From Phycisphaerales bacterium (GTDB taxonomy: Bacteria > Planctomycetota > Phycisphaerae > Phycisphaerales > UBA1924), in contig JAHDXL010000005.1 in NCBI GenBank assembly GCA_023382935.1, positions 53,717 through 117,716 of the forward strand: 64,000 nucleotides of DNA, written 5' to 3'. The translations under genes and the position numbers were made by a program. Numbering within the stretch: the first letter of the stretch is position 1; the number at the start of each line of letters is the position of its first letter. Shown here one piece after another: positions 2,249-21,551 of the stretch. The notes under the pieces were generated by a model. That model did not search any database, had not been told where the DNA came from, and saw only the letters and a program-made list of their open reading frames with translations.

Positions 2249-2283
2249 GCCGGCAGTGGGCCACCGCCCGCTGCCGGTTTTTT
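2249..2283 (+). terminator. Intrinsic terminator after hcp
   Basis: CCGGCAG (2250-2256) pairs with CTGCCGG (2271-2277), with inner GGG/CCC pairing. Followed by TTTTTT (2278-2283). Confidence 0.6.
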
Positions 2284-2321
2284 CGCTCCAGATCGTGGGA
2301 AGCACGTGGGGAGGTGGTGTC

Positions 2322-3173
2322 ATGGGTGCGCCTGCCAGATCAGCCGAAGAAATGCTCCGCGCGGGGCGCGTGTCCGATGCGATGTCTGCACTGCGGGAGT
2401 CGATTCGTTCCGACCCGTCGGATCCGAAAAAGCGCCTGTTTCTCTTTCAACTCAACTGCGTGCAGGGAGAGTGGGACAAGGCGCTCAACCAACTCAACGT
2501 GGCGGCCGAACTCGACCCCGGGGTGCAATTGATGGCCCGCGTTGGTCGGGCGGCCATCCAGTGCGAAGTGTTCCGGCAGGAGGTTTTCGCCGGCAAGCGT
2601 TCGCCCCTGCTGCTTGGCGAGCCAGAGCCGTGGGTCGGGATGATGCTCCAGGCGATGCAACTGTCCGGGCAGGGCAGGCACGGGCCTGCGGCCGAGTTGC
2701 GCACCCAGGCGTTTGAGAAGGCTCAGGCCCTTCCGGGCACGCTGACGGTCTCGGAGGGGGAAGTCGGCACGCCGCACAAGTTTGAGTGGCTGGCCGACGC
2801 GGACGAGCGCCTAGGCCCGATGATCGAGGCGATCGTGGAAGGGAAATACTACTGGGTGCCGTTTTCGCACATCCGTGCGATCTATCTCGAGCCTCCCAGC
2901 GACCTGCGTGACCTGGTCTGGGCGCCGGCGACGTTCCGCTGGGCCAACGGCGGTGAGATGGTTGGGCTGATTCCCACCCGTTATCCCGGCTCTGAGCGTT
3001 CGCCGGACGGGGCGATTGCTCTGGCCCGCAAGACCGATTTCAACGAGGTGGCGTCTGACACGTTTGAGCCTCTGGGCCAGCGCATGTGGGCGACCGACAT
3101 GGGTGAATATCCTGTGCTCCAGACCAGGCGCATCGAGATCGATCATCCCGACGGACCTGTGACCAATGGCTGA
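2322..3173 (+). CDS. tagJ: T6SS accessory protein TagJ (ImpE/SciE family)
   Basis: TPR-like N-terminal half and an ImpE-type C-terminus (YYWVPFSHIRAIYLEPPSDLRDLVWAPA, IPTRYPGS). GGGAGG lies 7 nt before ATG 2322; the ORF track starts at 2256. The stop overlaps the tssE start. Confidence 0.75.
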   Translation: MGAPARSAEEMLRAGRVSDAMSALRESIRSDPSDPKKRLFLFQLNCVQGEWDKALNQLNVAAELDPGVQLMARVGRAAIQCEVFRQEVFAGKRSPLLLGEPEPWVGMMLQAMQLSGQGRHGPAAELRTQAFEKAQALPGTLTVSEGEVGTPHKFEWLADADERLGPMIEAIVEGKYYWVPFSHIRAIYLEPPSDLRDLVWAPATFRWANGGEMVGLIPTRYPGSERSPDGAIALARKTDFNEVASDTFEPLGQRMWATDMGEYPVLQTRRIEIDHPDGPVTNG

Positions 3174-3672
3174 GTTGACCCCATCCGACCGGCTCCAGCC
3201 CTGCCTGCTCGACCGCCTGACCGACGACGAGCCGGACAAGCAATCGGAGAGCCGCAATCGCCGGGTGTTTTCGCTCCGGCAGATCCGCGAGGCGGTGCTG
3301 CGCGACCTTTCGTGGCTGCTCAATACGCCGGCGCGCTCGGCAACGGAAGACTTCTCGCTCTTCCCAGAGGTCGAGAAGTCGGTGCTCAACTACGGGATTG
3401 CAGACCTCGCGGGCCTGACGGCCTCGGGCGTCAACCTGAGCCAGCTCGAGGTCATGGTGGCGCGTGCCATCGAGCGCTACGAGCCGCGCGTGCTGCCCAA
3501 CACGGTCAAGGTGCGGGCGGTGGTCAGCAAGGACCAGACGGAGCGCAACACGCTGGCGTTTGAGATTTCAGGCGATCTCTGGGCCGAGCCGGTGCCCGAT
3601 CCGCTGTACCTGAAGACCGAACTGGACCTGGAAACCGGTCAGTGCACGCTGCGGGAGAGAGTCGGTGGATGA
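3166..3672 (+). CDS. tssE: T6SS baseplate subunit TssE (gp25-like)
   Basis: 168 aa. Canonical start MAELTPSDRLQPCLLDRLTDDEP. ATGGCTGA overlap with tagJ. Confidence 0.9.
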   Translation: MAELTPSDRLQPCLLDRLTDDEPDKQSESRNRRVFSLRQIREAVLRDLSWLLNTPARSATEDFSLFPEVEKSVLNYGIADLAGLTASGVNLSQLEVMVARAIERYEPRVLPNTVKVRAVVSKDQTERNTLAFEISGDLWAEPVPDPLYLKTELDLETGQCTLRERVGG

Positions 3673-5539
3673 ACGGCTGAAGCGCTATTACGAGCGTGAG
3701 TTGCGCCACGTGCGCGAGTCGGCCGGGGAGTTCGCCCGCGAGTTTCCCAAGATCGCGGCGCGCCTCAGTCTCGACGAGATGTCGTGCGCCGACCCCTACG
3801 TCGAGCGTCTGCTCGAGGGGTTTGCGTTTCTGTCGGCTCGTGTGCAACTTAAACTCGACGCCGAGTTTCCGCGCTTCACGCAGCACATGCTCGAGAGCGT
3901 CTATCCGCACTATCTGTGCCCCACGCCCTCGATGCTGGTTGCCCAGTTCAAGCCCGATCTGGAAGACAGCGGGCTGGCCAGTGGATTTGACGTGCCTCGT
4001 GGCACTGTCCTGCGCAGCAACATCGGCAAGGAAGATCAGACCGCCTGCGAATATCGCACTGCCCACGCGGTCAAACTCTTCCCGCTCGAACTCTTCGAGG
4101 CCCAGTATCACGACCGCGATCTGGCCAGCCTCGGGCTGCCGAACATTCCCGGCGTGCGGGCGGCCATCCGATTCCGTTTGCGCGCCACCGCCGGGCTTTC
4201 GCTGGCCGAGATTGCGCTGGACCGTCTGCCCATTTTCATCCGCGGGGTCGGCGACGTGGCGGTGCGCATCTACGAGCAGGTCTTTGCACACGGGCTTGGC
4301 GTGGTGGTGCGGCCAACCACCAAGCCGGCCAAGTGGCACCATCACATTCCGCAGAAGCGCGTGCGTCAACTGGGCTTTGAGCCCGAGGAGGCGCTGCTCC
4401 CGCCCGGCCCGCGCAGTTTCGACGGGTATCGCCACCTCCACGAATACTTCACCTTCCCCGAGCGATTCCTGGCGTTCGAGGTCGGCGGGCTGCGCGAGGC
4501 GATGCAGCGCGCCGACCAGACACAGATCGAACTGGTCATACTGCTCAAGCAACCCGACGTGGAACTGGAAAACGGCATTGACGCCGAGAACCTGCTGCTG
4601 CACTGCACACCGGCGATCAACCTGTTCGAGAAGCGGGCCGACCGCATCCACATTTCCGACAAGTTTCCCGAGTTTCAACTGGTGCCCGATCGCACACGTC
4701 CGCTCGATTACGAGGTCTACGACGTGCTCGACGTCACTGGCTTCGGCACCACGGCCGACGAGGAGACACGCTTCCGCCCGTTCTACGCCGCGACCGACTA
4801 TGACGAAGGCTCGCAGGCGGCTGGGGCCTACTACGCAACCAATCGCGTGCCTCGTGTGCTCTCGGCCAAGGAACGCCGCCTGGGGCGTCGCTCGCGGTAC
4901 ACGGGCAGCGAGGTCTACCTGTCGCTGGTCGATGCGCACAACGCGCCGTTCAAGTCGGACCTGAGGCAGATCGGCGCCACCACGCGCTGCACCAATCGCG
5001 ATCTGCCGCTGCGGATGCCGGTGGGGGTCGGCCGCACCGACTTCACGACCGAGGCCGGCGCCGCCGTCGAGTCGGTTCGTTGCGTTGCCGGCCCGACTCC
5101 GCCGCAGTCATCGGTGGCCGAAGGCGAGACCGCCTGGCGACTGATCAGCCACCTGTCGCTCAACTATCTCTCACTGGCCGACGAGGATGAAGTTCGCGGC
5201 GCCGGCGCGCTGCGCGAACTGCTCGCTCTTTACGGCGACCTGTCCAACTCGGCCATACGCAAGCAGATCGAGGGGGTGCGCAAGGTTGGCGCCCGCCCGG
5301 TGACGCGCCGCGTGCCGGTTCCCGGCCCCATCGCCTTCGCCCGCGGGCTGGAGGTCGCGGTGACGCTGGAGGACGCTGCGTTTCAGGGCTCGGGCCCGTT
5401 CCTGCTGGGCGCGGTGCTCGAACGCTTCTTTGCCAAGTACGTCTCGCTCAACTCGTTTGTCGAAACCTGTATCAACACCACGGAGCGTGGGGAGATCATG
5501 CGATGGCCGACGCGCATCGGTCTGAGACATACGCTCTGA
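3665..5539 (+). CDS. tssF: T6SS baseplate subunit TssF
   Basis: 624 aa. Canonical N-terminus MDERLKRYYERELRHVRESAGEFAREFPKIAARL. GTGGATGA overlap with the tssE stop. Confidence 0.93.
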   Translation: MDERLKRYYERELRHVRESAGEFAREFPKIAARLSLDEMSCADPYVERLLEGFAFLSARVQLKLDAEFPRFTQHMLESVYPHYLCPTPSMLVAQFKPDLEDSGLASGFDVPRGTVLRSNIGKEDQTACEYRTAHAVKLFPLELFEAQYHDRDLASLGLPNIPGVRAAIRFRLRATAGLSLAEIALDRLPIFIRGVGDVAVRIYEQVFAHGLGVVVRPTTKPAKWHHHIPQKRVRQLGFEPEEALLPPGPRSFDGYRHLHEYFTFPERFLAFEVGGLREAMQRADQTQIELVILLKQPDVELENGIDAENLLLHCTPAINLFEKRADRIHISDKFPEFQLVPDRTRPLDYEVYDVLDVTGFGTTADEETRFRPFYAATDYDEGSQAAGAYYATNRVPRVLSAKERRLGRRSRYTGSEVYLSLVDAHNAPFKSDLRQIGATTRCTNRDLPLRMPVGVGRTDFTTEAGAAVESVRCVAGPTPPQSSVAEGETAWRLISHLSLNYLSLADEDEVRGAGALRELLALYGDLSNSAIRKQIEGVRKVGARPVTRRVPVPGPIAFARGLEVAVTLEDAAFQGSGPFLLGAVLERFFAKYVSLNSFVETCINTTERGEIMRWPTRIGLRHTL

Positions 5540-6531
5540 TCCTGCGGCTGATGGAGAAGCCGTACGCCTTCGACTTCTTCCAGGCGGTGCGGCGGCTCGA
5601 CTGCGCGCGAACGGGCGGAGAGCCGATCGGCATCTCCACCCGCCTGAAGATGGACCCGGTGCGCTTCGCACAGAAGGTCAGCCTCGCCTTTGCGCCGTCC
5701 ACCATCGCCGGCGTCGACAAGCCGGTGGAAGGTTCCGCTCCGCGATTTGCCGTGAACTTCTTCGGGCTGCTCGGGCCAAACGGGCCCATGCCGCTGCACC
5801 TGACCGAGTACGTTCACGAGCGCGAGCACAACTACCACGATCGCACGCTGGCGCGGTTCCTTGATATCTTCCACCACCGGATGATCTCGCTGTTCTACCG
5901 CGCCTGGGCTGTCAACCAGCCCACCGCCAGTTTCGACCGGGCATTGCAGGATCCGCTCAGCGATCGGGTGGGCGCCTACGTGGGCTCGATGGCCGGGCTG
6001 GGTTCGCCCGCGCTGCGGCAGCGCGATCGCGTCAGCGATCTGGCCAAACTGCACTACATCGGGCGGCTGGCCTGCCAGACCAGGAACGCCGAGGGGCTTG
6101 AAGCGATCATCGCCGACTACTTCAAGGTGCCCGCGAGCATCATCGAGTTTGTCGGGCACTGGATGGACCTGCCCGAGGACAGCCGATGCCGTCTCGGGCA
6201 GTCGCGCCACACCGGGACGCTCGGTTCGACCACCGTGGTCGGTTCGTCGATCTGGGAAGTACAGCAGAAGTTCCGCATCCGCATCGGGCCGGTGGGCCTG
6301 CGGGCCTACGAGCGGTTCCTGCCGACCGGGCGCAGTTTCGGGCGTCTGGTCGATTGGGTTCGCAATTACGTGAGTTTCGAGTATCGTTGGGACGCCCAGT
6401 TGGTGCTCGATCGTCGCGAGGTGCCGCAGACGCGCCTCGGGCGGGCGGGACGACTGGGCTGGACGACCTGGCTGTGCACCCGGCCTCTGGAGCGTGATCC
6501 GGACGACCTGGTGCTCACGCCGCCGGAATAG
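5503..6531 (+). CDS. tssG: T6SS baseplate subunit TssG
   Basis: 342 aa. Contains the YAFDFFQAVRRLD motif typical of TssG. The start overlaps the tssF 3' end by 37 nt. Confidence 0.9.
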   Translation: MADAHRSETYALILRLMEKPYAFDFFQAVRRLDCARTGGEPIGISTRLKMDPVRFAQKVSLAFAPSTIAGVDKPVEGSAPRFAVNFFGLLGPNGPMPLHLTEYVHEREHNYHDRTLARFLDIFHHRMISLFYRAWAVNQPTASFDRALQDPLSDRVGAYVGSMAGLGSPALRQRDRVSDLAKLHYIGRLACQTRNAEGLEAIIADYFKVPASIIEFVGHWMDLPEDSRCRLGQSRHTGTLGSTTVVGSSIWEVQQKFRIRIGPVGLRAYERFLPTGRSFGRLVDWVRNYVSFEYRWDAQLVLDRREVPQTRLGRAGRLGWTTWLCTRPLERDPDDLVLTPPE

Positions 6532-6580
6532 TCTGTGCCGCGCCACGGCACGGTGTGATGGGAAAGCGGGAGGCATCGTC

Positions 6581-9331
6581 ATGGCTGAGATCAGTCTCAA
6601 GTCGCTGTTCGGGAAGATGAACAGTTTGTGCTACAAGAGCGCGGAGAGCGCCACCGTGTTCTGCAAGATGCGGGGCAACCCCCGCGTCGACGTGGTCCAC
6701 TTCATCCACCAGGTGCTGCAACTGCAGGACTCGGACCTGCACAAGATCATCCGCCACTTCCAACTCAATCCGGCCAGACTGGCCTCCGATCTGACGGCGA
6801 CGCTTGATTCCGTGCAGCGGGGCGCGTCTTCGATCGCTGGATTCTCCAGCGACCTTGAGGAGGCCGTCGAGCGGGCCTGGGTCTACGGCAGCCTGATGTT
6901 CAACGAGCGTTCGATCCGCTCGGGACATCTGGTGGTTGGCATGCTCAAGACCAAGAGCCTCTCGCGTGCGCTCATCGGCATCAGTGAAGAGTTCGCCAAG
7001 ATCCGCGTCGACGAACTGTGCGATTCCTACGAGAAGATCCTCGGCGATTCGCCCGAGTCCAAACTTGCGGCCCGCGAGAGTGGGGGAGTGGGCGGCGGCG
7101 CCGTTCCAGGTGAGGCGTCCGGCGCCATGGCCCCGGCGGAAATGGGCAAGGAAGAGGCTCTCAAACGCTTCTGCCGCGACATGACCGAGGAAGCACGCTC
7201 AGGCAAGATCGACCCGATCGTCGGTCGCGACGAGGAAACCCGTCAGGTCATCGACATTCTCATGCGCCGGCGTCAGAACAACCCGGTGCTGGTCGGCGAA
7301 GCCGGCGTCGGCAAGACCGCCGTGGCCGAGGGATTCGCCCACAAGATCGTCGAGGGCGATGTACCTCCGCCGTTGCAGGGCGTGCGCCTGCTGGAACTCG
7401 ACGTCTCGGCTCTTCAGGCCGGGGCCAGCATGAAAGGTGAGTTCGAGCAGCGCCTCAAGCAGGTCATCGAAGAGGTGCAGGCCTCGACGAGGCCGACAAT
7501 CCTTTTCATTGACGAAGTTCACCGCCTGATTGGTGCCGGCGGGCAGGCGGGTACGGGTGATGCGGCCCAGTTGCTCAAGCCGGCGCTGGCACGCGGCCTG
7601 CTGCGCACCGTCGCCGCGACGACCTGGGCCGAGTACAAGAAGCACATCGAGAAGGACCCCGCGCTGACGCGGCGATTCCAGACGGTGCTGGTCGATGAGC
7701 CGGGCGAAGAGCGTGCCATCCTCATGATGCGCAAGGTGGCCGGCATCTTTGAGAAGCATCACAAGGTGCAGATTCTCGACGAGGCGATCGAGGCCGCCGT
7801 GCGCCTCAGCCACCGGTACATCCCCGCCCGCCAGTTGCCGGACAAGGCGGTGAGTCTGCTGGATACGGCCTCGGCGCGCGTGGCCATCGGGCAGCACGCC
7901 GTGCCGGCTGAGGTGGACGACACGCGCAAACGCATCCAGGCGCTCGAGACCGAGTCGCAGATCCTCGCCCGCGAGCAGGCGGTGGGCTTTCACCACGAGA
8001 AGCGCATGCAGGAAGTGGCCGAGCATATCCGGGCCGAGCAGGAGCGCCTCGCGTCGCTCGAATCCAACTGGCAGAGGGAAAAGGAACTGGTCGAGCGTGT
8101 GCTGGGGATTCGTGCCAGACTGCGTGGTCCGACCGGCGCCGAGCACGTCGAGGGCACCGGCTCCAAGGCCGAGGCCAGGGCCGGGGCGCAGGTTGCAGCC
8201 GAAGCCGCCGCTGCCGGCAAGTCGACGCTGAGCGATGCCGAACGGGCCGCGCTGGTGGCCGAACTCGACCAGGTAAAGAAGGAACTGGCCGAGTTGCAGG
8301 GCGACAAGCCGCTGATCATACCTGACTGCGACGCCAACGCCGTTGCGGCCGTTGTCGCCGACTGGACTGGCATCCCCGTCGGGCGCATGGTCAAGAACGA
8401 GATCCAGGCGATCCTGCAACTGGCCGATACGCTCAACAAGCGCGTCATCGGCCAGCGCCACGGGCTGGAGGCCATCGCCAAGCGCATCCAGACCAACCGC
8501 GCCAGCCTCGACAATCCCAACAAGCCGATCGGCGTGTTCATGCTCGCCGGGCCCTCGGGCGTCGGAAAGACCGAAACCGCTCTCGCCCTGGCCGAGGCGC
8601 TCTACGGCGGCGAGCAGAACGTCATCACCATCAACATGTCTGAGTTCCAGGAAGCGCACACCGTCTCGACGCTCAAGGGCGCCCCTCCCGGGTACGTGGG
8701 ATACGGAGAGGGTGGTGTGCTGACCGAGGCCGTCCGGCGCAAGCCCTACTCGGTCGTTCTCCTTGACGAGGTCGAGAAGGCCCACCCCGACGTTCACGAG
8801 ATTTTCTTCCAGGTCTTCGATAAGGGGAACATGGAGGACGGCGAGGGTCGGCACATCGACTTCAAGAACACGGTCATTCTCCTCACCACCAATGTGGGCA
8901 CCGAACTGATTATGAACATGTGTAAGGATCCCGACCTGATGCCTTCGGTGGAGGGGCTTCAGAAGTCCTTGCGCGAGCCGATGCTCAAGGTTTTCCCGGC
9001 CGCGCTGCTGGGGCGCATCACGGTCATCCCGTATTTCCCGCTCGACGACAAGATGCTCAAGGAAATCGCCCGCCTGCAGTTGGGACGCATCCAGAAGCGC
9101 ATCAGCCAGAACCACGGGGCCCGTTTCGACTATGGCGAAGACGTGCTCGACCTGATCGTCAGCCGGTGCACCGAGATCGAGTCCGGCGGCCGCATGATCG
9201 ATGCCATCCTGACTCAGACCATGCTTCCGGAGATTTCGACCGCCTTCCTGAACCGGATGATGGAGGGTCGAACCATCGAGCGGGTGCAGGTGCATGTGGG
9301 AGACAACGAGTTCCGCTATGCCTTTGAGTGA
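6581..9331 (+). CDS. clpV: T6SS AAA+ ATPase ClpV (TssH)
   Basis: ClpV-type N-domain ([27 protein letters not shown]) and two AAA+ modules (Walker A GEAGVGKT and GPSGVGKT). Start taken at ATG 6581 after GGGAGG; the ORF track start 6494 lies inside tssG. Confidence 0.93.
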
Positions 9332-9396
9332 GCGGCGGGCGCGGTTGTCGCTTGAGAACTGGGTCCAGACGGGTTCCGGAAAGGACGAGGCTGTCG

Positions 9397-10218
9397 ATGT
9401 CGCTGCGACGAACACCCGGGGTCATCTGCCAATGCCAGTCGGGGACTGGGATTGATGGTGGGACCAACGCCCTGACGCTGTCGGGGCTGCCGGGTCCGAC
9501 CACCGACCTGATGAGCGCTCAGGCTGCGGCGAGGGCGATTTACGCCTCGGTGTCCAACCAGAGCCCGGTGTGCATGGATTGGGACGCCATCCGGGGAGCC
9601 GGGCAGTTGGCCCGGGCCGCGACCGCGTCCATGATTGAGTCGAACCTGCAACTATCGCTCGAGCAGGCGGTCTACGGCTTTGCCGTGCGCCAGGTGGCCG
9701 AGCAGTACCTCGATGTTCGGGAAACTGGCGGCGACAACCGGGGCGAAGAGGTCGAGGCGATGCTCGAGGGTGCCGGCGGCTCGGCGGGCATGTCGTGGTG
9801 CGCAGCCTTCGTCTCGCACTGCCACGTCGAGGCCGCCGCCCTGCTGTGCGCCGGCACGACCTGCCCGCGCACGCTCAGCGCGGTGATGATGGTCTTTCAC
9901 GGGCGCACTGCGGGCAACCTCACGTTCAGCAAGGCAAGCGTCCTGTCGGGCGCCATCATGCCCTTTGCCGGCGACGTGTTCTCGATGGTGCACCAGGGCC
10001 CGGTCAGTTCGCTCGACCCGGGCCGGCCTGCGCAGTTTCGCCGCGGGCATACCGGTATCGTCATCAGTTACAACGCGGCGACGCAAACGCTCACCACCAT
10101 CGAAGGCAACACCAATGAGGGTGGCGGACGCGAAGGCAATGGCGTGTACCTTCGCACCGACCGCATGCGCAGCGCCCGCCTGTGGGGCTTCATGCGTCCA
10201 CGCATCGTCTGGTTCTAG
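9397..10218 (+). CDS. CHAP/NlpC-P60-superfamily peptidoglycan amidase-like protein, no signal peptide
   Basis: Catalytic-type motifs in the usual order: MSWCAAFVSHC (Cys), RRGHTGIVISY (His), TTIEGNTNEG. Resembles CHAP / TIGR02594-like hydrolases. Start uncertain (ATG 9397; alternatives 9511 and 9631). Stop lies 11 nt before vgrG. Confidence 0.7.
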   Translation: MSLRRTPGVICQCQSGTGIDGGTNALTLSGLPGPTTDLMSAQAAARAIYASVSNQSPVCMDWDAIRGAGQLARAATASMIESNLQLSLEQAVYGFAVRQVAEQYLDVRETGGDNRGEEVEAMLEGAGGSAGMSWCAAFVSHCHVEAAALLCAGTTCPRTLSAVMMVFHGRTAGNLTFSKASVLSGAIMPFAGDVFSMVHQGPVSSLDPGRPAQFRRGHTGIVISYNAATQTLTTIEGNTNEGGGREGNGVYLRTDRMRSARLWGFMRPRIVWF

Positions 10219-10229
10219 GAGACACACCC

Positions 10230-12350
10230 ATGCCCGCTGGACTGCGGACTCAGGCAAACCGGACCATCGCCATCAACACACCCCTCGGTGCGGACAAGGT
10301 GGCCATTCAGTCCATCCGCGGGCAGGAGGAACTCGGGCGCCTGTTTCAGTACGAACTCGAACTGCTCAGCGAAGACGACACGCTCGTCTTCGAGGAACTG
10401 CTCGGGCAGAACGTCACCGTCCGTGTCGGCATTGGCTCGGGACCGGACGTGCGCTACATCAACGGATACATCAGCCGAATCTCTCAGCATGAGTATCGTG
10501 CCGGGCTGGCGGTCTATCGTGCCACGCTTGTTCCGTGGCTGTGGTTCCTCACCCGCCAGTCCGACTGTCGCATCTACCAGGAGATGACCTTCCCGGACAT
10601 CGTCAAGTCGGTGTGCAAGGAACTTGGTTTCACCGACATCAAGGATCAACTCGCGAGCACCTACCAGTCTCGAGACTTCTGCGTGCAGTACCGCGAGACC
10701 ACGTTCAATTTCGTCTCGCGTCTGATGGAGCAGGAGGGCATCTACTACTACTTCGCCCACGAGAACGGCAAACACGAACTCGTCCTGTGCGACGCGCCCG
10801 ACGCCCACGCCGCTCTGGCCACCGGGCTTGAAATCCCTTTCTATCCGCCCGACGGAAGCAAACGCAACGAGCAACACATTCGCGGCTGGACCGTGCAGAA
10901 GCAGATCCAGTCGCTCAAGTACGAACTGGCCGATTTCGACTTTGAGAAGCCCAACGCACCGGTCGTGAGCAACTCGCAGCAGCAGCGCGACCACGCGACC
11001 GGCCCGTGGGAGGCCATGTACGACTACCCCGGCGAGTACGTCACCGGGGAGGAGGCTCAGCACTTTTCGACCATCCGGCTCCAGGAGTTGCAGGCCCGAT
11101 ATGAGCAGATCAGCGGACAGGCCGATCATCGTGGCATTGTCGTCGGTGGCCGCTTCAAACTGACGCTGCCCGCCAAGGGCATGCGCCCCGACCAGGAGCG
11201 CGAGTACGTCGTGACGTCGACGAGTCTCCAGGCCTCGCAGGATTTGTTCGGCTCGGGCGGCGACGCGGGTAGCGAAGACCTCTTCTCGATCGCCTTCACG
11301 GTCATTCCCGCGACCGAGCACTTCCGCCCGGCTCGCACCACGCCCAAGCCCCTGATCCAGGGTCCGCAGACCGCCATCGTCGCAGGAAAGGACGGTGAGG
11401 AAATCTGGACCGACGAGTATGGGCGCGTCAAGGTGCAGTTTCACTGGGACCGCTACTCGGCCGGCGATGAGAAGAGTTCCTGCTGGTGCCGCGTGAGCCA
11501 GAACTGGGCGGGCAAGCGCTGGGGCGCCATGTTCATGCCGCGCATCGGGCAGGAGGTCATCGTCGAGTTTCTCGAGGGAGACCCCGATCGCCCAATCATC
11601 ACGGGGCGCGTCTACAACGGGCAGAACATGCCGCCCTACAAGCCCACCGAGATGGGAACCGTGAGCACCATCAAGAGCAACACCTCCAAAGGGGGGGCGG
11701 GCTTCAATGAGATCCGCTTCGAGGACAAGAAGGACGAGGAGCAGGTCTTCATCCACGCCCAGAAGAACATGGATGTCCGCGTGCTCAACGACCGCTTCGA
11801 GACCGTCGTGCACGATCGACACCTCGTCGTCGAGAACGACAAGTTCGAACACGTCAAGCACGACCGGCACCTGGTGGTGGACAACGATCGATTTGAACAC
11901 ATCAAGCGCGACGTGAACATCACGGTGGACGGCAAGCATGCCGAGGCCGTCTCCGGTTCCTATTCGCAGAAGGTCACCGGCGACGTGGCCGAGGTGTACG
12001 AGGCCAACCAGTCCACTGAGATCACCGACGACCTCTACATCAAGGCGAAAAACATCTGCTTCGAGGCCGTGGAGAACATCACCATCAAGGTCGGGAAGAC
12101 CAGCATCGCTCTGGAGACGACCGGGGTGGGGCTTGCAACCAAGGGCGACATCAAGGCCGAGGCGACCAAGAACATTGAACTCAAGGCCACCACCGAGTTC
12201 AAGGCCGAGGGTACCGCCGGCGTCGACGTGAAGGGTGCCAAGGTCGACGTGAAGGCCGACGGGATGGCAACCTTCGAGGGCACCGGTCCCACCACGGTCA
12301 AGAGCGCCGCGATCCTCACCGTGCAGGGCTCGCTGGTCAAGATCAACTGA
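10230..12350 (+). CDS. vgrG: T6SS spike protein VgrG (TssI)
   Basis: 706 aa. Canonical start (AINTPLGADKVAIQSIRGQEELGRLFQYELELLSED), gp27/gp5 core (RVSQNWAGKRWGAMFMPRIGQEVIVEFLEGDPDRPIITGRVYN) and C-terminal beta-helix repeats. AGGAG RBS before ATG 10230. No C-terminal effector extension. Confidence 0.95.
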   Translation: MPAGLRTQANRTIAINTPLGADKVAIQSIRGQEELGRLFQYELELLSEDDTLVFEELLGQNVTVRVGIGSGPDVRYINGYISRISQHEYRAGLAVYRATLVPWLWFLTRQSDCRIYQEMTFPDIVKSVCKELGFTDIKDQLASTYQSRDFCVQYRETTFNFVSRLMEQEGIYYYFAHENGKHELVLCDAPDAHAALATGLEIPFYPPDGSKRNEQHIRGWTVQKQIQSLKYELADFDFEKPNAPVVSNSQQQRDHATGPWEAMYDYPGEYVTGEEAQHFSTIRLQELQARYEQISGQADHRGIVVGGRFKLTLPAKGMRPDQEREYVVTSTSLQASQDLFGSGGDAGSEDLFSIAFTVIPATEHFRPARTTPKPLIQGPQTAIVAGKDGEEIWTDEYGRVKVQFHWDRYSAGDEKSSCWCRVSQNWAGKRWGAMFMPRIGQEVIVEFLEGDPDRPIITGRVYNGQNMPPYKPTEMGTVSTIKSNTSKGGAGFNEIRFEDKKDEEQVFIHAQKNMDVRVLNDRFETVVHDRHLVVENDKFEHVKHDRHLVVDNDRFEHIKRDVNITVDGKHAEAVSGSYSQKVTGDVAEVYEANQSTEITDDLYIKAKNICFEAVENITIKVGKTSIALETTGVGLATKGDIKAEATKNIELKATTEFKAEGTAGVDVKGAKVDVKADGMATFEGTGPTTVKSAAILTVQGSLVKIN

Positions 12351-12359
12351 GGTGTCTGC

Positions 12360-12794
12360 ATGAACCCCAAAGACGGAAAATCCTGTTCGCTTGTCGAACC
12401 GGGTGAAGCGACGGAAGCGACCGACGCCGACACCGCCGACCCCGGAAAGGTCTCGCAGATCAAGGCCCGCGAGCGCGAGAACAAGGAAGGAAAATACGGC
12501 AAGGAGACTGTCGAGCCCTTCACGCCGGCCAACGAGCCCTACGACCCCGTCGAGACCAGTTGGATCGAGATCGAACTGGTTGACGAGTCCGACAAGCCGG
12601 TCGCCGGCGCGCAATACGAGGTCACGCTGTCCGACGGGCGCGTGGCATCGGGCATGCTCAACGGCGAAGGCTGGGCACGGCTCGAGGGCATCCCGCCGGG
12701 CACCTGCAGGATCTGCTTCCCGAAACTCGACGCCGAGGCGTGGGAGTTCATCGAGTCGGTTGACGAGAAGTATCCCGCCATTCAGGTTTCCTAG
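12360..12794 (+). CDS. Hypothetical protein: acidic disordered N-terminus plus carboxypeptidase-regulatory/transthyretin-like beta-sandwich
   Basis: Starts 9 nt after the vgrG stop. GC3-rich. C-terminal segment WIEIELVDESDKPVAGAQYEVTLSDGRVASGMLNGEGWARLEGIPPGTCRICF fits the CarboxypepD_reg-like pattern and is paralogous to a segment of the next ORF. Confidence 0.6.
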   Translation: MNPKDGKSCSLVEPGEATEATDADTADPGKVSQIKARERENKEGKYGKETVEPFTPANEPYDPVETSWIEIELVDESDKPVAGAQYEVTLSDGRVASGMLNGEGWARLEGIPPGTCRICFPKLDAEAWEFIESVDEKYPAIQVS

Positions 12795-12818: not shown

Positions 12819-13433
12819 ATGCCCATCGATCACGTGGTCAGACATGGCGAATGCCTCCTGTCGATCAGCGACAGGTACGGCTTCTTCCCCGAGACGCTCT
12901 GGAACCACGCCGACAACCGCCAACTCAAGCAGCAGCGTGAGGATCCCAACGTCCTCCAGGCCGGCGATGTCGTTCATATTCCCGATCTGAACCGCAAGGA
13001 AGAAAGCAAACCTGACAAGCAGCGTCATCGCTTTCGCCGCAAGGGCGTGCCCGGCAAACTCAGGATCCGCCTTCTGGACAACGGCCAGCCGCGCGCCCAT
13101 GTGCCCTATCGCCTCGTCATCGACGGCCACATCATCGAGGCCCAGACCGACGGCGACGGCTTTGTCGAGCAGGATCTGCCCGCCAGCGCCAGCCAGGGTG
13201 AACTGATCGTTGACCGCGACGACGGCGGCACCGATCACTACCACTTCAACTTCGGCACGGTCGATCCGATCGACACCGAGGCCGGGCAGCGCCATCGCCT
13301 GCACGACCTGGGCTACGACACCACCGAGCACCCGGAAGCCATCCGCGCCTTCCAGCGCGATCACGATCTTGAGCCCAGCGGCCAGGCGGATGATCAGACC
13401 CTGTCCAAACTGCAGGAGATCTTCGGGCAATGA
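12819..13433 (+). CDS. LysM + beta-sandwich + PG_binding_1-like domain protein, no signal peptide
   Basis: N-terminal LysM-like segment (HVVRHGECLLSISDRYGF...LQAGDVVHIPD). Middle segment KLRIRLLDNGQPRAHVPYRLVIDGHIIEAQTDGDGFVEQDLP. C-terminal LGYDTTEHPEAIRAFQRDHDLEPSGQADDQTLSKL resembles a peptidoglycan-binding helical repeat. Confidence 0.75.
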   Translation: MPIDHVVRHGECLLSISDRYGFFPETLWNHADNRQLKQQREDPNVLQAGDVVHIPDLNRKEESKPDKQRHRFRRKGVPGKLRIRLLDNGQPRAHVPYRLVIDGHIIEAQTDGDGFVEQDLPASASQGELIVDRDDGGTDHYHFNFGTVDPIDTEAGQRHRLHDLGYDTTEHPEAIRAFQRDHDLEPSGQADDQTLSKLQEIFGQ

Positions 13434-13954
13434 GCGGAGTTGTCTCTTTCATCTCGCGACTCGTACAGTCCGCCACGGCGCACAACACGATCAATCTGCC
13501 GACGGTGCCGGTGACGTTCCAGCGATCGCCGGGCGTTCCGACGGCCAATGAGCGCGGCATCTCCGACATGGACTTCCGTGTCACCTCCCTGGGGTTTGTG
13601 CTTCAGACCGGTCGCACGCCGGCCAACGGCCGCATCGATGTCCGACTCGTCGGCGGGCGTGCCACGCTCCAGTTGCTGCACAACGGCAACCCCGTGGCCG
13701 AGTACGACATTCGTGTGCACACCGCCGCAGTCGAGCCCGACTCCACCATCAACGGCATCCAGCGTCGCCTGCGCATGCTCGGGTACCAACTCGGGCACGA
13801 GGGCGCCGGGAAGGACGGCATCACCAACACCATCACCAAACTCACCGATCGCGCCATCCAGGACTTTCAGATCGACCAGAAGGTCGCCTTCGATGGCAAG
13901 GTCGACGCGGGCACCACGACGAAGATCAACGACGCCGTGGCCGCGCTGCCCTGA
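13430..13954 (+). CDS. Hypothetical protein with C-terminal PG_binding_1-like domain, no signal peptide
   Basis: ATGA overlap with the previous ORF. C-terminus INGIQRRLRMLGYQLGHEGAGKDGITNTITKLTDRAIQDFQIDQKVAFDGKVDAGTTTKI fits the PG_binding_1 pattern. Confidence 0.65.
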   Translation: MSGVVSFISRLVQSATAHNTINLPTVPVTFQRSPGVPTANERGISDMDFRVTSLGFVLQTGRTPANGRIDVRLVGGRATLQLLHNGNPVAEYDIRVHTAAVEPDSTINGIQRRLRMLGYQLGHEGAGKDGITNTITKLTDRAIQDFQIDQKVAFDGKVDAGTTTKINDAVAALP

Positions 13955-13981: not shown

Positions 13982-15154
13982 ATGATCCGGATCAACGTCG
14001 CACAGAACAAGCAGGTCATCGTGCCTCTGCGTTTCCGCCGCGCCAGCGATGCCGACGCCGAACGCGAGTTTCCGGAGATCGACGATCGCGGCTACGAAAT
14101 GGGCACCCGCGCGGGCACCTGGGGGCAGTCCACCGCCCGCGGGCCCATGGTCGGGCTGACCACCGGCTTCACCGTCACGCTGCGCGTCGTGCGCGAGGAC
14201 ATCGACGCCAATGCCCCCCTGTTCGCCAGGAGCACCGATACGGCCGTGGTCAAGATCATCGAACCGGCCAACGGCGGACCCATCCCGGCTTCGGGCGACT
14301 TCAAGATCAAGGGCGTCGCCGACTTTGCCAATCGTCCCGTTTCGGTGCAACTGCGGCTGGGCGGCATTGATGGGCCGGTGCTCGGCGAGATCGAGCCTCA
14401 CATCTTCACGCCCCGGAAGATCAAACTGGTCGTGCACAACATGCGCATCGACGACGCCACGGGTCAGGGTACCCGCGCCGCTCTCCCGATCGAAGACATG
14501 GCCGCCCGCGTCCGCGCCATCTGGTGGCCCGCGGGCCTCGACATGGATTACGACCCCGTCGCCCGCCCCGACAAGAACAACGACAGCACGCTCGCCAAGA
14601 AGGACGAGGTCAAACTCTTCGGCGGCGGCTTCGGCGAGGTGCCCGGGCTGCTCCGCCAGCACAGCGTGCTCGACGACAAGATCCACCTGTTCGTCATCAA
14701 CGCCTTCACGCCCAATCCGGCCACGCCCGACCTGACCACCGTTGGGCTGGGCGTCACGCCTGATCTTGCCACGCAACTCAACTGCCCCCCGGGCATCTTC
14801 GTCACCGCGAAGGACGTCGTGGGCGACCAGGCGGAAATTGAACTCCGCTCGCGCACCATCGCACACGAGATCGGGCACTTCCTCACGCTTGAGCACGTGC
14901 ACCGCAAGAACGCGACCGAGGCGGCCGGCGACACCTACTCGCGCCGCCATCTCATGTATCCGCTCTCGAACATCGTCGAGGAGGTCACGCCCCGCACGCT
15001 CACCAGCGAGCATCGCTTCAACGACAACGGGTATGGCGAGCAGGTGCGGGGCTGGATGCTCACGCTCAAGAACCTCGATCATCACGACACCGACGATGAA
15101 GTCGCCAAGGCGCGCAAGCGTGCCCAGGCCGTGCAGGGAGGCAAGTGGAGTTGA
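13982..15154 (+). CDS. Metzincin (matrixin-like) zinc metalloprotease, no signal peptide; candidate T6SS effector
   Basis: HEIGHFLTLEH (HExxHxxxxxH, three His ligands) followed about 20 aa later by a Met-turn HLMYP (compare ALMYP of MMPs). About 280 aa of N-terminal Ig-like and catalytic-domain sequence. Same operon as vgrG. Confidence 0.75.
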   Translation: MIRINVAQNKQVIVPLRFRRASDADAEREFPEIDDRGYEMGTRAGTWGQSTARGPMVGLTTGFTVTLRVVREDIDANAPLFARSTDTAVVKIIEPANGGPIPASGDFKIKGVADFANRPVSVQLRLGGIDGPVLGEIEPHIFTPRKIKLVVHNMRIDDATGQGTRAALPIEDMAARVRAIWWPAGLDMDYDPVARPDKNNDSTLAKKDEVKLFGGGFGEVPGLLRQHSVLDDKIHLFVINAFTPNPATPDLTTVGLGVTPDLATQLNCPPGIFVTAKDVVGDQAEIELRSRTIAHEIGHFLTLEHVHRKNATEAAGDTYSRRHLMYPLSNIVEEVTPRTLTSEHRFNDNGYGEQVRGWMLTLKNLDHHDTDDEVAKARKRAQAVQGGKWS

Positions 15155-15226
15155 CGCGACCGTTGGCCTCCGGCGGAAGGCCCCGGCCATCTGCGAGTTG
15201 TCCGACCCGCCCTTGCGGAGATACCG

Positions 15227-16003
15227 ATGGACACCAGGGAACTCACCACGCTCATCCGCGCCGGGCACGACGATCGCGCCATCGACGTCGCCCGCGCCTC
15301 CGGCCCGCCCGCCTTCAACCAGGTTGAGGCGCTGCTGGCCGACCCATCGCCGCAGGTTCGTGCCATCACGTTGCGCGTCCTCGACGCGGCCGATCCGCGG
15401 CGGGCTCATCCCTTGGCCCTCAAGGCCCTCTCCGACCCGAGCGATGAAGTCCGGACGTTCGCCGTCGCGGTGCTCCGCCCCAATCCCCCCTCCGGCCACG
15501 CCTCCGAGTTGCTCGCCGCCTACAACACCTCCCATGACCCCGCACTGAGGGCCGAGATCGCGCTGCTGGCCGGGCGCGTCCAGCCACCCGAAGCGATCGA
15601 CACCTGGCGCGCCGTCTGGGCCCGCGAGGACGACCGCTACGCCAAGGCCGACGTGTGCAAGGCCCTGGCGCGCATGGGCGACCAGCCCGCCCGCGACGCC
15701 TACGTCGCCGACATGAAGCGACAGCGCGGCCGCCCCGTCTTCGATCTCATCCGCGGCACGGCCTACTTCCAGAACACCTGGGTGGTCCCCGCGCTGGCCC
15801 AGATGCTCGATCGCAAGGACGTGGCCCTGCACCTGGCCCCGGACTTCCCGGACACGCACCCCTTCCGCGTCTGCGACGTGGCGCTGGAGGCCATCCTCAC
15901 ACTCACCGGGGAGAAGGTCGAGTTCCAGGTGCCGCGCCCGACCCAGTACGCCGAGTCCGAGATCGCCACGGTCCGGGGCATCGCGCGCAGGTACGGGCCC
16001 TGA
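15227..16003 (+). CDS. HEAT-repeat protein; candidate cognate immunity/partner of the preceding protease
   Basis: Repeated HEAT/PBS-lyase-like units ([42 protein letters not shown]). GCGGAG RBS. Last gene before the C-tract. Confidence 0.75.
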
Positions 16004-16104
16004 CCCCCGGCCCCCGGACCCCCGGCCCCCCGGCCCCCCGGCCCCCCGGACCCCCGGCCCCCCGGACCCCGGCCCCCCGGACCCCGGACCCCCCCCGGAC
16101 CCCC
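16004..16104. repeat. C-tract microsatellite: 13 runs of C4-C8 separated by GG or GGA
   Basis: Read directly. Starts on the first base after the TGA of the HEAT-repeat gene. The complementary strand carries 13 G-tracts. Confidence 0.9.
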
Positions 16105-16205
16105 GTAATTCCGGCTTGTCCCCGTCGGCCTGCACGCCTCGGCCGGACTCCGCTTTTTTTGGATGCACGCGCGCGCCGTGCCGCCCGTTCGGCCGCCCCA
16201 GCGCC

Positions 16206-16390
16206 CGTGCACGCCCTCCGGACAGCCGTGCCCGCCCGCCGTGCACGGTTTCACACCCTCTGGCAACCCGTGCACGCCCGCCGTGCACGGTTTCACACCC
16301 TCTGGCAACCCGTGCACGCCCGCCGTGCACGGCTTTCCGCCCGCCGGCAACCCGTGCACGCCCGCCGTGCACGGCTTTCCGCCCGCCGGG
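16206..16390. repeat. Tandem 42-bp repeat array carrying eight copies of the palindrome CGTGCACG
   Basis: Identical units at 16240-16281 and 16282-16323, a variant unit at 16324-16365 and a truncated fourth. Palindrome copies start at 16206, 16240, 16269, 16282, 16311, 16324, 16353 and 16366. Intergenic, upstream of glnN. Confidence 0.85.
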
Positions 16391-20743: not shown

Positions 20744-20867
20744 TGGCTGCGGTGGGCTGTGATTCTTGCCCGCACGTGAGAGAACGATCCGCGGAGAGCA
20801 GATTCATGGCGAGCCGGCTCAATGTCGGGCCGGGTTTCCACACGCTTCCCTCTCGGAGGAGTTCGCC

Positions 20868-21551
20868 ATGACCAAGCCTCTGCACGTTGCCGCGATCGCC
20901 GTTCTGGCCGTTTGTCCGGCCTCGGCGCTGGCCCAGATTCAGAACGGGAGTTTTGAACTCGGGCTGGCCTATCCGTCGGGGCTGAGCATCTTCACTGCCG
21001 GCACCCCGTCGCCGTGGTTTGCCACCAGTTTCACGCCCGACCTCTACGACAACACCGGTGTGGACGGCTGGAGTCTGGCCGGCATCCCGGCGTACAACGG
21101 CATGTTTGCCCAGATGCTCGCGTGCGACGGAAACCGCTTCATCGGCTTTGCGGCCTCGGCGACGTTCAGTGAGGCATTTGCCCAGACCACCGCACCTCTG
21201 GTGGCCGGTCAGCAGTACACCCTCGGTGCCTGCATGGCGGTCGATGACCTGGGCAAGGCGGCGCCCTTTGGCGGGCCTTACACCGGGCGCGGCGTCGTCG
21301 ACGTGTATCTCAACAGCGGCTACATCGGCTCGTTTGCGCAGAACACCGCGACCTATACCTGGGAGGCCCGCTCGATCACCTTCGTTGCCACCAGTTCGCT
21401 GCCCGCGACCTTCACCTTCGTGGCGCAGGTGGATCCGACGAACGGAGCGGCCAGTTACATGGCGCTCGACCACATCCGCCTGGTGCCGGCCCCGGGCGCG
21501 GCCGCGCTTCTCGGGCTCGGTGGAGTGATGTGCGCGCGTCGCCGGCGGTGA
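20868..21551 (+). CDS. Secreted protein with C-terminal PEP-CTERM sorting signal
   Basis: Signal peptide MTKPLHVAAIAVLAVCPASALAQ. C-terminus VPAPGAAALLGLGGVMCARRRR. GGAGGA RBS before ATG 20868. Confidence 0.8.
   Translation: MTKPLHVAAIAVLAVCPASALAQIQNGSFELGLAYPSGLSIFTAGTPSPWFATSFTPDLYDNTGVDGWSLAGIPAYNGMFAQMLACDGNRFIGFAASATFSEAFAQTTAPLVAGQQYTLGACMAVDDLGKAAPFGGPYTGRGVVDVYLNSGYIGSFAQNTATYTWEARSITFVATSSLPATFTFVAQVDPTNGAASYMALDHIRLVPAPGAAALLGLGGVMCARRRR

Follow-up and report, generated by a model that had tools for sequence, protein, structure and literature searches.

A predicted metzincin toxin and its HEAT-repeat partner at the end of a split, spike-linked type VI secretion cassette in Phycisphaerales

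Introduction

What is the function of a metalloprotease that has no export signal, is encoded in an operon that opens with the spike gene of a secretion machine, and is followed directly by a gene for a HEAT-repeat protein? This question is raised by a 64-kb stretch of DNA from a Phycisphaerales bacterium (contig JAHDXL010000005.1; referred to below as the window, with all positions in whole-window numbering). The window carries genes of a type VI secretion system (T6SS), and the two proteins of interest, the 390-amino acid (aa) protease MP390 and the 258-aa HEAT-repeat protein HEAT258, are encoded downstream of its vgrG gene. A preliminary description of this DNA had proposed that the two are an effector and its immunity protein. 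We compared the locus with other loci that carry homologues of the protease (given L-numbers below), and we find it probable that the T6SS spike carries a cargo effector split over several genes, that MP390 supplies its catalytic, toxic subunit, and that HEAT258 is the cognate inhibitor of MP390. The evidence for this reading comes from sequence motifs, conserved gene order, fusions between the genes, export signals and signs of selection, and from it we infer secretion, toxicity, site of action and binding.

Results

The protease and the HEAT-repeat protein in the vgrG operon

The operon that contains the two genes has the following features:

10182-12350, + strand: VgrG spike (TssI), opening the cassette-bearing operon; Pfam Phage_GPD (317.8 bits), Gp5_trimer_C and Phage_base_V, NCBIfam TIGR03361 (628 bits)
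12360-12794, + strand: p144, a small prealbumin/transthyretin-like protein; weak Pfam matches to CarboxypepD_reg and SpaA prealbumin-like
12819-13433, + strand: 204-aa protein with LysM, a beta-domain and PG_binding_1 (27.3 bits)
13430-13954, + strand: PGB174, 174 aa, a beta-domain and PG_binding_1 (25.9 bits); 4-nucleotide (nt) overlap with the preceding gene
13982-15154, + strand: MP390, the 390-aa protease; conserved N-terminal segment, immunoglobulin (Ig)-like domain and metzincin domain
14864-14896, + strand: zinc-binding motif HEIGHFLTLEH, H295-H305 (H295, E296, H299, H305), read from the sequence
14954-14956, + strand: Met-turn methionine M325, invariant in homologues
15155-15226, + strand: 72-nt spacer with GGAG at 15217-15220, from a DNA alignment with L027, L028 and L001
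15227-16003, + strand: HEAT258, the 258-aa HEAT-repeat partner; Pfam HEAT_2 48.8 bits (cutoff 27.7)

All of these genes are co-directional, and from the end of vgrG at 12350 through HEAT258 the distances between them are 9, 24, -4, 27 and 72 nt. VgrG relatives were called at 701-707 aa, so the real start of the window's VgrG may lie slightly downstream of 10182. None of the effector parts encoded in the window has an export signal, as is expected of T6SS cargo. A scan for a promoter and a terminator of the operon gave nothing informative.

MP390 is probably a divergent metzincin

The motif A-HEIGHFLTLEH-V occupies residues 294-306 of MP390, and M325, in the context RRxLMxP, lies 20 residues past the third histidine. 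In an alignment of 27 homologues with 29-85% identity, A294, H295, E296, H299, H305 and M325 were invariant. Because the residues of both the motif and the Met-turn are invariant, we take the site to be a conserved catalytic apparatus and not a chance HExxH, in agreement with the complete metzincin site of the preliminary description. The position of the glycine in HExxHxxGxxH is occupied by Thr in MP390 and by T, G, R or D among the homologues. The N-terminus of MP390 (MIRINVAQNKQVIVPLRFRRASDADAERE) has neither a hydrophobic signal nor a lipobox, as had been described, and is itself conserved throughout the family. The other two metzincins of the window do have signal peptides, also as described.

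Residues ~1-155 of MP390 comprise the conserved N-terminal segment and an Ig-like beta-sandwich, and residues ~155-390 the catalytic domain. AlphaFold2 produced a confident two-domain model of the full-length protein, with a predicted local distance difference test score (pLDDT) of 87 and a predicted template modeling score (pTM) of 0.88; the pLDDT of the catalytic domain modeled alone was 85.6. A Foldseek search with the full-length model returned mostly Ig-like matches from the N-terminal domain, together with StcE, and was uninformative about the catalytic domain. Searched alone against the PDB, the catalytic domain had top matches that were all metzincins (snake-venom metalloproteinases, ADAM8, TACE, ulilysin and mirolysin), with probabilities up to 0.99. 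The best match in a PDB profile search with the family profile was trimerelysin II, an adamalysin (1wni; E = 6.6e-6), and ADAMTS-5 and ulilysin were found at ~9e-4 (ulilysin, 9.5e-4).

Matches to curated families were below threshold. Pfam Peptidase_M43 (pappalysin/ulilysin) scored 20.7 bits (cutoff 23), and Peptidase_M10 scored 13.9 bits (cutoff 24) over just 20 residues around the motif. The profile search reached matrixins only at E ~0.5, and together with the sub-threshold M10 score this led us to reject a matrixin (M10A) identity; the matrixin-type label of the preliminary description is replaced by adamalysin/reprolysin and ulilysin as the nearest relatives. There was no Reprolysin match to MP390, and the residue after its third histidine is Val, not the Asp of adamalysins. 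The homologue from Burkholderia lata passes Reprolysin_3 (25.7 bits; cutoff 22.4). The serralysin model of NCBIfam scored 12.7 bits against a cutoff of 500. No match to Aspzincin_M35 was found in Pfam, and the C-terminal metallopeptidase of VgrG2b (VgrG2b-Cter) was absent among the best 60 of 69 PDB profile matches. From these profiles and models we conclude that MP390 is probably a divergent member of the metzincins, of the adamalysin/pappalysin type and with adamalysins and ulilysin as its closest relatives, and we predict that it is a peptidase.

The family comprises ~200 clusters at 50% identity when matches are full-length with E <=1e-30, and 344 clusters at E <=1e-10, and no Pfam or NCBIfam model covers it. 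The ratio of nonsynonymous to synonymous substitution rates (dN/dS) of MP390 was 0.06-0.09 among the close relatives in which, as in the window, the HEAT protein has no signal (see below), indicating purifying selection.

An HExxH motif is also carried by the zincophore TseZ. T6SS-secreted zinc-binding proteins exist (PMC8602904), and MP390, with its full zinc site, might be a secreted zinc-capturing protein, a zincophore like TseZ or YezP. A mere chelator would need neither the general-base glutamate nor the Met-turn, yet both are invariant, and MP390 has a dedicated inhibitor-like partner. In addition, the relatives retrieved by a query with the B. lata homologue came only from a few Burkholderia and Cupriavidus, none of them from B. 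thailandensis or B. pseudomallei, and these are annotated as M12-family or zinc-dependent metalloproteases. We consider zinc capture by MP390 scarcely credible.

The cassette is conserved and linked to spike genes across phyla

We traced homologues of MP390 to 32 loci. The hosts belong to Planctomycetota (Phycisphaerales and Pirellulales), Acidobacteriota (Terriglobales), Desulfobacterota (Thermodesulfobacteriota and Desulfobulbia), Zixibacteria, Ignavibacteria, Myxococcota (Polyangiaceae) and Proteobacteria (Paraglaciecola, an Alteromonadaceae strain, Burkholderia lata and Cupriavidus). At every locus with a protease homologue, the next gene downstream of the protease encodes a member of the HEAT family, and this constant linkage indicates that the two proteins are an obligate pair.

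At about 20 loci, spread over eight phyla or more, a VgrG or PAAR gene is followed by genes for a transthyretin (TTR)-like adaptor, a LysM and PG_binding_1 protein, a PG_binding_1 protein, the protease and the HEAT protein, and the order VgrG, p144, LysM-PG_binding_1, PGB174, protease, HEAT is kept in most loci. In the window, and likewise in L001, L003-L009, L012, L015-L017, L024 and L027-L031, the protease gene is directly downstream of VgrG. Both L003 and L027 have a PAAR gene after the HEAT gene, and in L019 a PAAR-TTR protein takes the place of VgrG ahead of the protease. The vgrG gene of L027 lies in an orphan island, with proS on one side and the hut genes on the other. The place of the protease in a vgrG operon and its link to the spike, as initially described, are therefore borne out by VgrG or PAAR linkage in main clusters and in the orphan island L027, and by the loader-family genes upstream.

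Some loci are arranged differently. In Cupriavidus sp. YAF13 (L018, 6807-9173), a Tn5-type transposase gene is located beside a 209-aa DUF2345 remnant of vgrG, directly upstream of a fused metzincin; this looks like a vgrG gene disrupted by an insertion sequence. In L012 (9405-11830), two tandem protease paralogues are followed by one HEAT lipoprotein gene and then by LysM-PG_binding_1, PG_binding_1 and PAAR-TTR genes. L010 contains two divergent cassettes (5306-8721, - strand, and 8871-12102, + strand), each of which opens with a LysM-PG_binding_1 gene; one continues with genes for a 578-aa and a 301-aa protein and the other with PG_binding_1, protease and HEAT genes. A Ser/Thr kinase gene is nearby.

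Two loci from Phycicoccus (Actinobacteria) have a gene for a signal-less 252-aa metzincin (HELGHFLNLSH, with an LM turn) followed by a HEAT-repeat gene (L022, 9422-11204; L023, 2822-4579). They resemble the family only in the catalytic core, over 86 columns, and in generic HEAT repeats, over 106 columns (77% probability), and for this reason we rejected them both as members of the family and as T6SS-independent examples of the pair. The two Phycicoccus species are Gram-positive and are expected to have no T6SS. Their gene pair could be an independent or very distant combination of protease and inhibitor.

The genes upstream of the protease resemble parts of a split effector

Fusions at other loci are informative about the small genes between vgrG and the protease. 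The p144 domain forms the C-terminus of VgrG in L006, L008 (independent E-value 6.7e-33), L012 and L017, and is an extension of PAAR in L012 and L019. Because of these fusions and the weak prealbumin-like Pfam matches, we interpret p144 as a detached TTR-type (transthyretin-like) tip or adaptor domain of VgrG. Its dN/dS was 0.03-0.06.

LysM was detected in orthologues of the 204-aa protein in L014, L010 and L012. Paralogues of this LysM-PG_binding_1 protein precede other toxins, including a C39-like peptidase, an M23 and Tlde1 protein, and Amidohydro_2. LysM proteins of vgrG loci were found experimentally in 2023 to be needed for binding of toxin to VgrG, and PG_binding_1 is listed in that study among the domain families that behave genetically like the LysM loaders (PMC10673891). 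We predict that the 204-aa protein is a connector between VgrG and the toxin.

In L019 and L020, the protease carries the PGB174 module as an N-terminal fusion, and residues 37-175 of the 648-aa B. lata protein in L016 align with PGB174 (E = 4e-4). The loader domain between vgrG and toxin is thus a standalone protein in the window, and PG_binding_1 is on the toxin N-terminus in L019, L020 and L016. These alignments indicate that PGB174 is a detached N-terminal module of the toxin. Because of the fusions and the published loader role of LysM proteins, we conclude that the protease is best described as the last piece of a split, multi-gene, spike-loaded effector and not as a single-gene effector.

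A cassette with two peptidoglycan-binding-domain proteins and a hydrolase, in an order conserved beside VgrG across phyla, could also be an accessory of the secretion machine, a peptidoglycan-binding wall remodeler analogous to TagX or MltE that lets the T6SS assemble through the cell's own sacculus. These three proteins lack an export signal, however, and could not reach the periplasm of the producer except via the T6SS. The cassette also occurs in the orphan vgrG island L027 and away from T6SS core genes (L010 and L014), its parts fuse to VgrG, to PAAR and to one another as cargo does, and a dedicated inhibitor lipoprotein would be unexpected for a housekeeping enzyme. We rejected this explanation mainly on account of the missing export signals and the occurrence in the orphan island, and we consider it very improbable.

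Most HEAT partners are exported

The preliminary description had the next gene encoding a signal-less protein made entirely of HEAT repeats, and the HEAT_2 match, together with a reading frame that cannot be extended upstream, confirms a signal-less HEAT-repeat protein for the window. In most other lineages the protein has an export signal. All eight of the 300-326-aa HEAT homologues found by protein search open with a lipoprotein signal (for example, MRYIATVAIAAAVVLAGC). A lipobox was present in P0066-P0073, L001, L006, L007, L009-L013, L019, L020 and L027, and a Sec signal in L005, L008 and L015. In B. lata (L016, 7957-10955), there are three tandem paralogous genes of the HEAT family, encoding proteins of 324, 324 and ~322-345 aa, all with signal peptides. 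The triplet follows the gene for the 648-aa fused PG-binding-metzincin and is located between vgrG and tssL in a T6SS cluster. Homology of the B. lata paralogues to the family extends over their whole length (hhalign probability 94.7%, E = 6e-8, 282 columns).

The alignment of the HEAT family had few invariant positions overall, namely Y180, R214, D217 and F233, with C216 near-invariant. It is plausible from this conservation that the R-x-C-D loop is an element that caps the zinc of the protease.

Because most HEAT partners are exported, tightly linked to the protease and triplicated in B. lata, the HEAT protein looks like an immunity protein for a T6SS toxin that acts in the periplasm. Exported, linked immunity proteins of periplasm-acting T6SS toxins have worked examples in VgrG2b-Cter/PA0261 and Tpe1/Tpi1 (PMC6899460). 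The effector-immunity proposal of the preliminary description is supported as far as obligate pairing, spike linkage and exported partners are concerned, and has to be revised in that the effector is the last part of a split module and not one gene.

The target might instead be eukaryotic, or at least not bacterial, with the protease degrading, for example, surface proteins of a host or prey and the HEAT protein only silencing it in the producer. The nearest solved relatives of MP390 are extracellular-matrix and shedding proteases (adamalysins, ADAMs and ADAMTS), the inhibitor of the window is cytoplasmic, and an M35-type T6SS protease, T6EC12, is toxic to both yeast and bacteria (bioRxiv 10.64898/2026.09.28.754971). 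However, an exported lipoprotein inhibitor is mainly sensible as protection of a bacterial periplasm, LysM and PG_binding_1 loaders accompany cell-wall toxins both in the literature and in these loci, and the hosts are environmental bacteria from many phyla. A function of this kind seems decidedly unlikely.

Several observations weigh against a spike-loaded toxin with a cognate inhibitor. TM-scores of the catalytic domain to solved metzincins are low (0.34-0.44), with Foldseek E-values of 3.7e-3 at best. In L010 and L014, the four-gene cassette has no VgrG gene within 10 kb, and the order of the five-gene cassette is constant across phyla, more uniform than that of most effector cargo. The HEAT protein has no export signal, and is predicted to be cytoplasmic, in the window, L024, L029, L031, L003 and L014. 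With a signal-less HEAT258, a toxin that acts in the periplasm would leave sister cells unprotected, unless there is another copy outside the 64 kb. Finally, orphan HEAT copies, which the preliminary description had suggested as possible immunity islands, were not found in a shallow search (10 matches), and a search of the window turned up no further HEAT paralogue and no PAAR gene. We nevertheless regard a split toxin and its inhibitor as the probable explanation.

The signal-less HEAT protein of the window's clade

HEAT proteins of 258 aa are common to the window, L024, L029/L030 and L031/L032. Their first residue is the Met that ends a low-complexity linker in the long forms. HEAT258 has no in-frame start codon further upstream; the signal and linker of the long form take up 138-153 nt in close relatives, and the window has the 72-nt spacer instead. 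The long form is present in relatives with 58-77% identity and in every distant lineage, and the most parsimonious explanation is therefore that the signal-less HEAT258 reflects a derived loss of the lipoprotein signal in the window's clade. The signal-less HEAT protein of the preliminary description is thus true of the copy in the window, but it is peculiar to the clade, and cytoplasmic immunity does not appear to be the ground state of the family.

The short gene is not decaying. Its dN/dS was 0.06-0.19 at dS 0.27-0.9, similar to that of the protease, and it is under purifying selection. All four signal-less strains retain the GGAG ahead of this gene's ATG, and the rest of the spacer diverges.

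We also looked at the corresponding position in the long forms. Of 16 such forms, from many phyla, 15 have an in-frame ATG, GTG or TTG at the boundary of the folded domain. A Shine-Dalgarno (SD) core (GGAG, GAGG or AGGA) was present 5-16 nt ahead of this internal start in 12 of 16, compared to a background of 12% in the same genes. The enrichment has a nominal binomial P of ~8e-9 for sequences that are not independent of one another (paralogues and close relatives). The residues before the internal Met are conserved as [A/V]-E-x-[T/P]-M within an otherwise unconserved linker.

These patterns tentatively suggest that the HEAT gene is two genes in one. The first start would give a lipoprotein that guards the periplasm, and the internal SD sequence and start would give an isoform without a signal, which would keep the protease silent or accompany it in the cytoplasm of the producer until loading. 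Only this second isoform would have been kept in the window's clade. Two isoforms would explain how the signal-less form could survive alone under selection. We regard this as possible but somewhat doubtful, and the conserved residues at the internal start could instead be structural.

Instead of an immunity protein, the HEAT protein could also be a cytoplasmic chaperone or adaptor that holds or stabilizes the protease and hands it over to the loading complex of VgrG and LysM protein. This would fit the absence of an export signal in the window and in the other five loci named above, the purifying selection on the signal-less form, and the internal start with its SD core that is kept even in long forms. 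T6SS adaptors are also typically encoded beside their effector (PMC6560169). The main product of most homologues, however, is periplasmic (a lipoprotein or Sec substrate), where loading of cargo is impossible, the signal-bearing triplication in B. lata is typical of immunity genes and not of adaptors, and the loci already have three loader-type genes. As an account of the HEAT protein, a chaperone is unlikely, although the short form may have a chaperone or adaptor role. We had also considered Tla3 as a precedent for an immunity-like cytoplasmic adaptor and dropped it, as the paper shows no resemblance of Tla3 to an immunity protein (PMC6560169).

Other features of the window

The genome of the region has a GC content of 62-71%, and the closest long relative of the window is a contig labeled Phycisphaerales UBA1924. 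Upstream of vgrG, we identified the following genes from Pfam matches and the list of open reading frames (ORFs):

29-1534, + strand: TssC (T6SS-i core)
2256-3173, + strand: TagJ/ImpE (T6SS-i core)
3665-5539, + strand: TssF (T6SS-i core)
5503-6531, + strand: TssG (T6SS-i core)
6494-9331, + strand: ClpV (T6SS-i core)
9328-10218, + strand: CHAP/TIGR02594-like ORF, 296 aa (273 aa as called in relatives)

The position of the CHAP-like ORF between clpV and vgrG is kept in L001, L024, L029 and L031, and no immunity-like gene adjoins it. It could be a second effector, of the amidase type, or a wall-remodeling accessory.

Downstream of HEAT258 there are GC-rich tandem repeats and then a gene for a type III glutamine synthetase (glnA). 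The first array (15998-16105), between HEAT258 and glnA, has ~13 copies of an 8/16-nt unit of the CCCCGGA type. The second (16210-16389) has ~4.3 copies of a 42-nt unit, each with a palindrome-like CCGTGCACG...CGTGCACGG. Both arrays may be binding sites of a regulator ahead of the glutamine synthetase gene. Further downstream, an ORF at 20766-21551 (+ strand) encodes a protein with a C-terminal PEP-CTERM-like sorting signal (VPAPGAAALLGLGGVMCARRRR) that belongs to no Pfam family.

Discussion

A split effector of this kind could work as follows. VgrG would carry p144 as a TTR-like tip, the LysM and PG_binding_1 protein would bridge the spike and the toxin, and PGB174 would be an N-terminal module of the toxin itself that is translated separately. 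After firing, the metzincin would cleave a peptide or protein in the envelope (periplasm) of a neighboring Gram-negative cell. HEAT258 would bind the protease directly and thereby block it. The HEAT lipoprotein of most lineages would be exported and guard the periplasm from attack by sister cells, and in the window's clade the signal-less product would act only in the cytoplasm of the producer, as a pre-secretion safety or holder.

The closest parallels are the Tpe-Tpi pairs, which include the C-terminal metallopeptidase of VgrG2b with PA0261 in Pseudomonas aeruginosa and Tpe1-Tpi1 in Acinetobacter baylyi (PMC6899460), and T6EC12-T6IC12 of Methylocaldum is the same kind of pair (bioRxiv 10.64898/2026.09.28.754971). 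The immunity protein in these pairs binds the peptidase and is periplasmic, a lipoprotein or membrane-anchored, depending on the lineage (PMC6899460; bioRxiv 10.64898/2026.09.28.754971). As in the cassette described here, a zinc-metallopeptidase toxin is tied to the spike via a TTR domain; periplasmic action and neutralization by the partner have been demonstrated there and are predicted here. The differences are also clear. The Tpe-type enzymes are thermolysin-like or aspzincin M35 peptidases with an acidic third ligand on a later helix, whereas MP390 has the metzincin features of a Met-turn and a His as third ligand, six residues past the second His. HEAT258 is unrelated to PA0261, the LysM and PG_binding_1 proteins are encoded by separate genes, and MP390 has an extra Ig-like N-terminal domain. 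We considered T6EC12 as a relative of MP390 because its HExxH is at a similar position, and rejected it because it is an aspzincin M35 protein (bioRxiv 10.64898/2026.09.28.754971).

The upstream genes resemble published loaders such as the LysM protein Kalk_10460 of Ketobacter alkanivorans and BRPE67_05220 of Burkholderia sp. RPE67 (PMC10673891). The same three configurations occur in our loci: standalone, on the toxin N-terminus, and beside a TTR-VgrG. In that study, PG_binding_1 was mainly gammaproteobacterial and LysM was found with lysozyme-like, NlpD and NlpC/P60 toxins (PMC10673891), whereas here the loader modules serve a metzincin and are found in Planctomycetota, Acidobacteriota, Zixibacteria, Ignavibacteria, Myxococcota and others.

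Serralysins have operon-encoded periplasmic inhibitors, as in AprA-AprI and PrtA-Inh. The likeness is that of a bacterial metzincin beside a dedicated exported protein inhibitor that guards the periplasm of the producer. Serralysins differ in being exported by a type I secretion system and inhibited by a small beta-barrel, in contrast to the T6SS link and the HEAT repeats here. HEAT-repeat proteins encoded right after toxin genes, in planctomycetes among others, were proposed as immunity proteins (Imm-HEAT) by Zhang et al. in 2012 (PMC3482391). Those are tied to Tox-REase-7 and Ntox34 and not to a metallopeptidase, and we liken them to HEAT258 by description.

We conclude that MP390 and its partner probably represent a new family within the T6SS metallopeptidase effector-immunity pairs, undescribed so far as the searched literature shows. 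To our knowledge, few of the T6SS effectors described to date are protease toxins, and the characterized ones (VgrG2b-Cter, Tpe1 and T6EC12) belong to another zinc-peptidase clan than the MP390 family. The natural versions in which the TTR domain, LysM connector, PG_binding_1 module and toxin are split or fused should be useful for dissecting how cargo is attached to VgrG or PAAR. Cultured hosts make the family tractable, with Burkholderia lata as a ready model alongside B. puraquae, Cupriavidus basilensis and Paraglaciecola arctica. If the HEAT gene does make two isoforms, one gene would protect two compartments of the producer, the window's clade would be a natural experiment with the cytoplasmic isoform alone, and an internal SD sequence and ATG past the signal and linker would be a signature that can be searched for in other immunity genes. 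Taken together, the findings define an uncharacterized family of predicted metzincin effectors with a HEAT-repeat lipoprotein as the predicted immunity partner.

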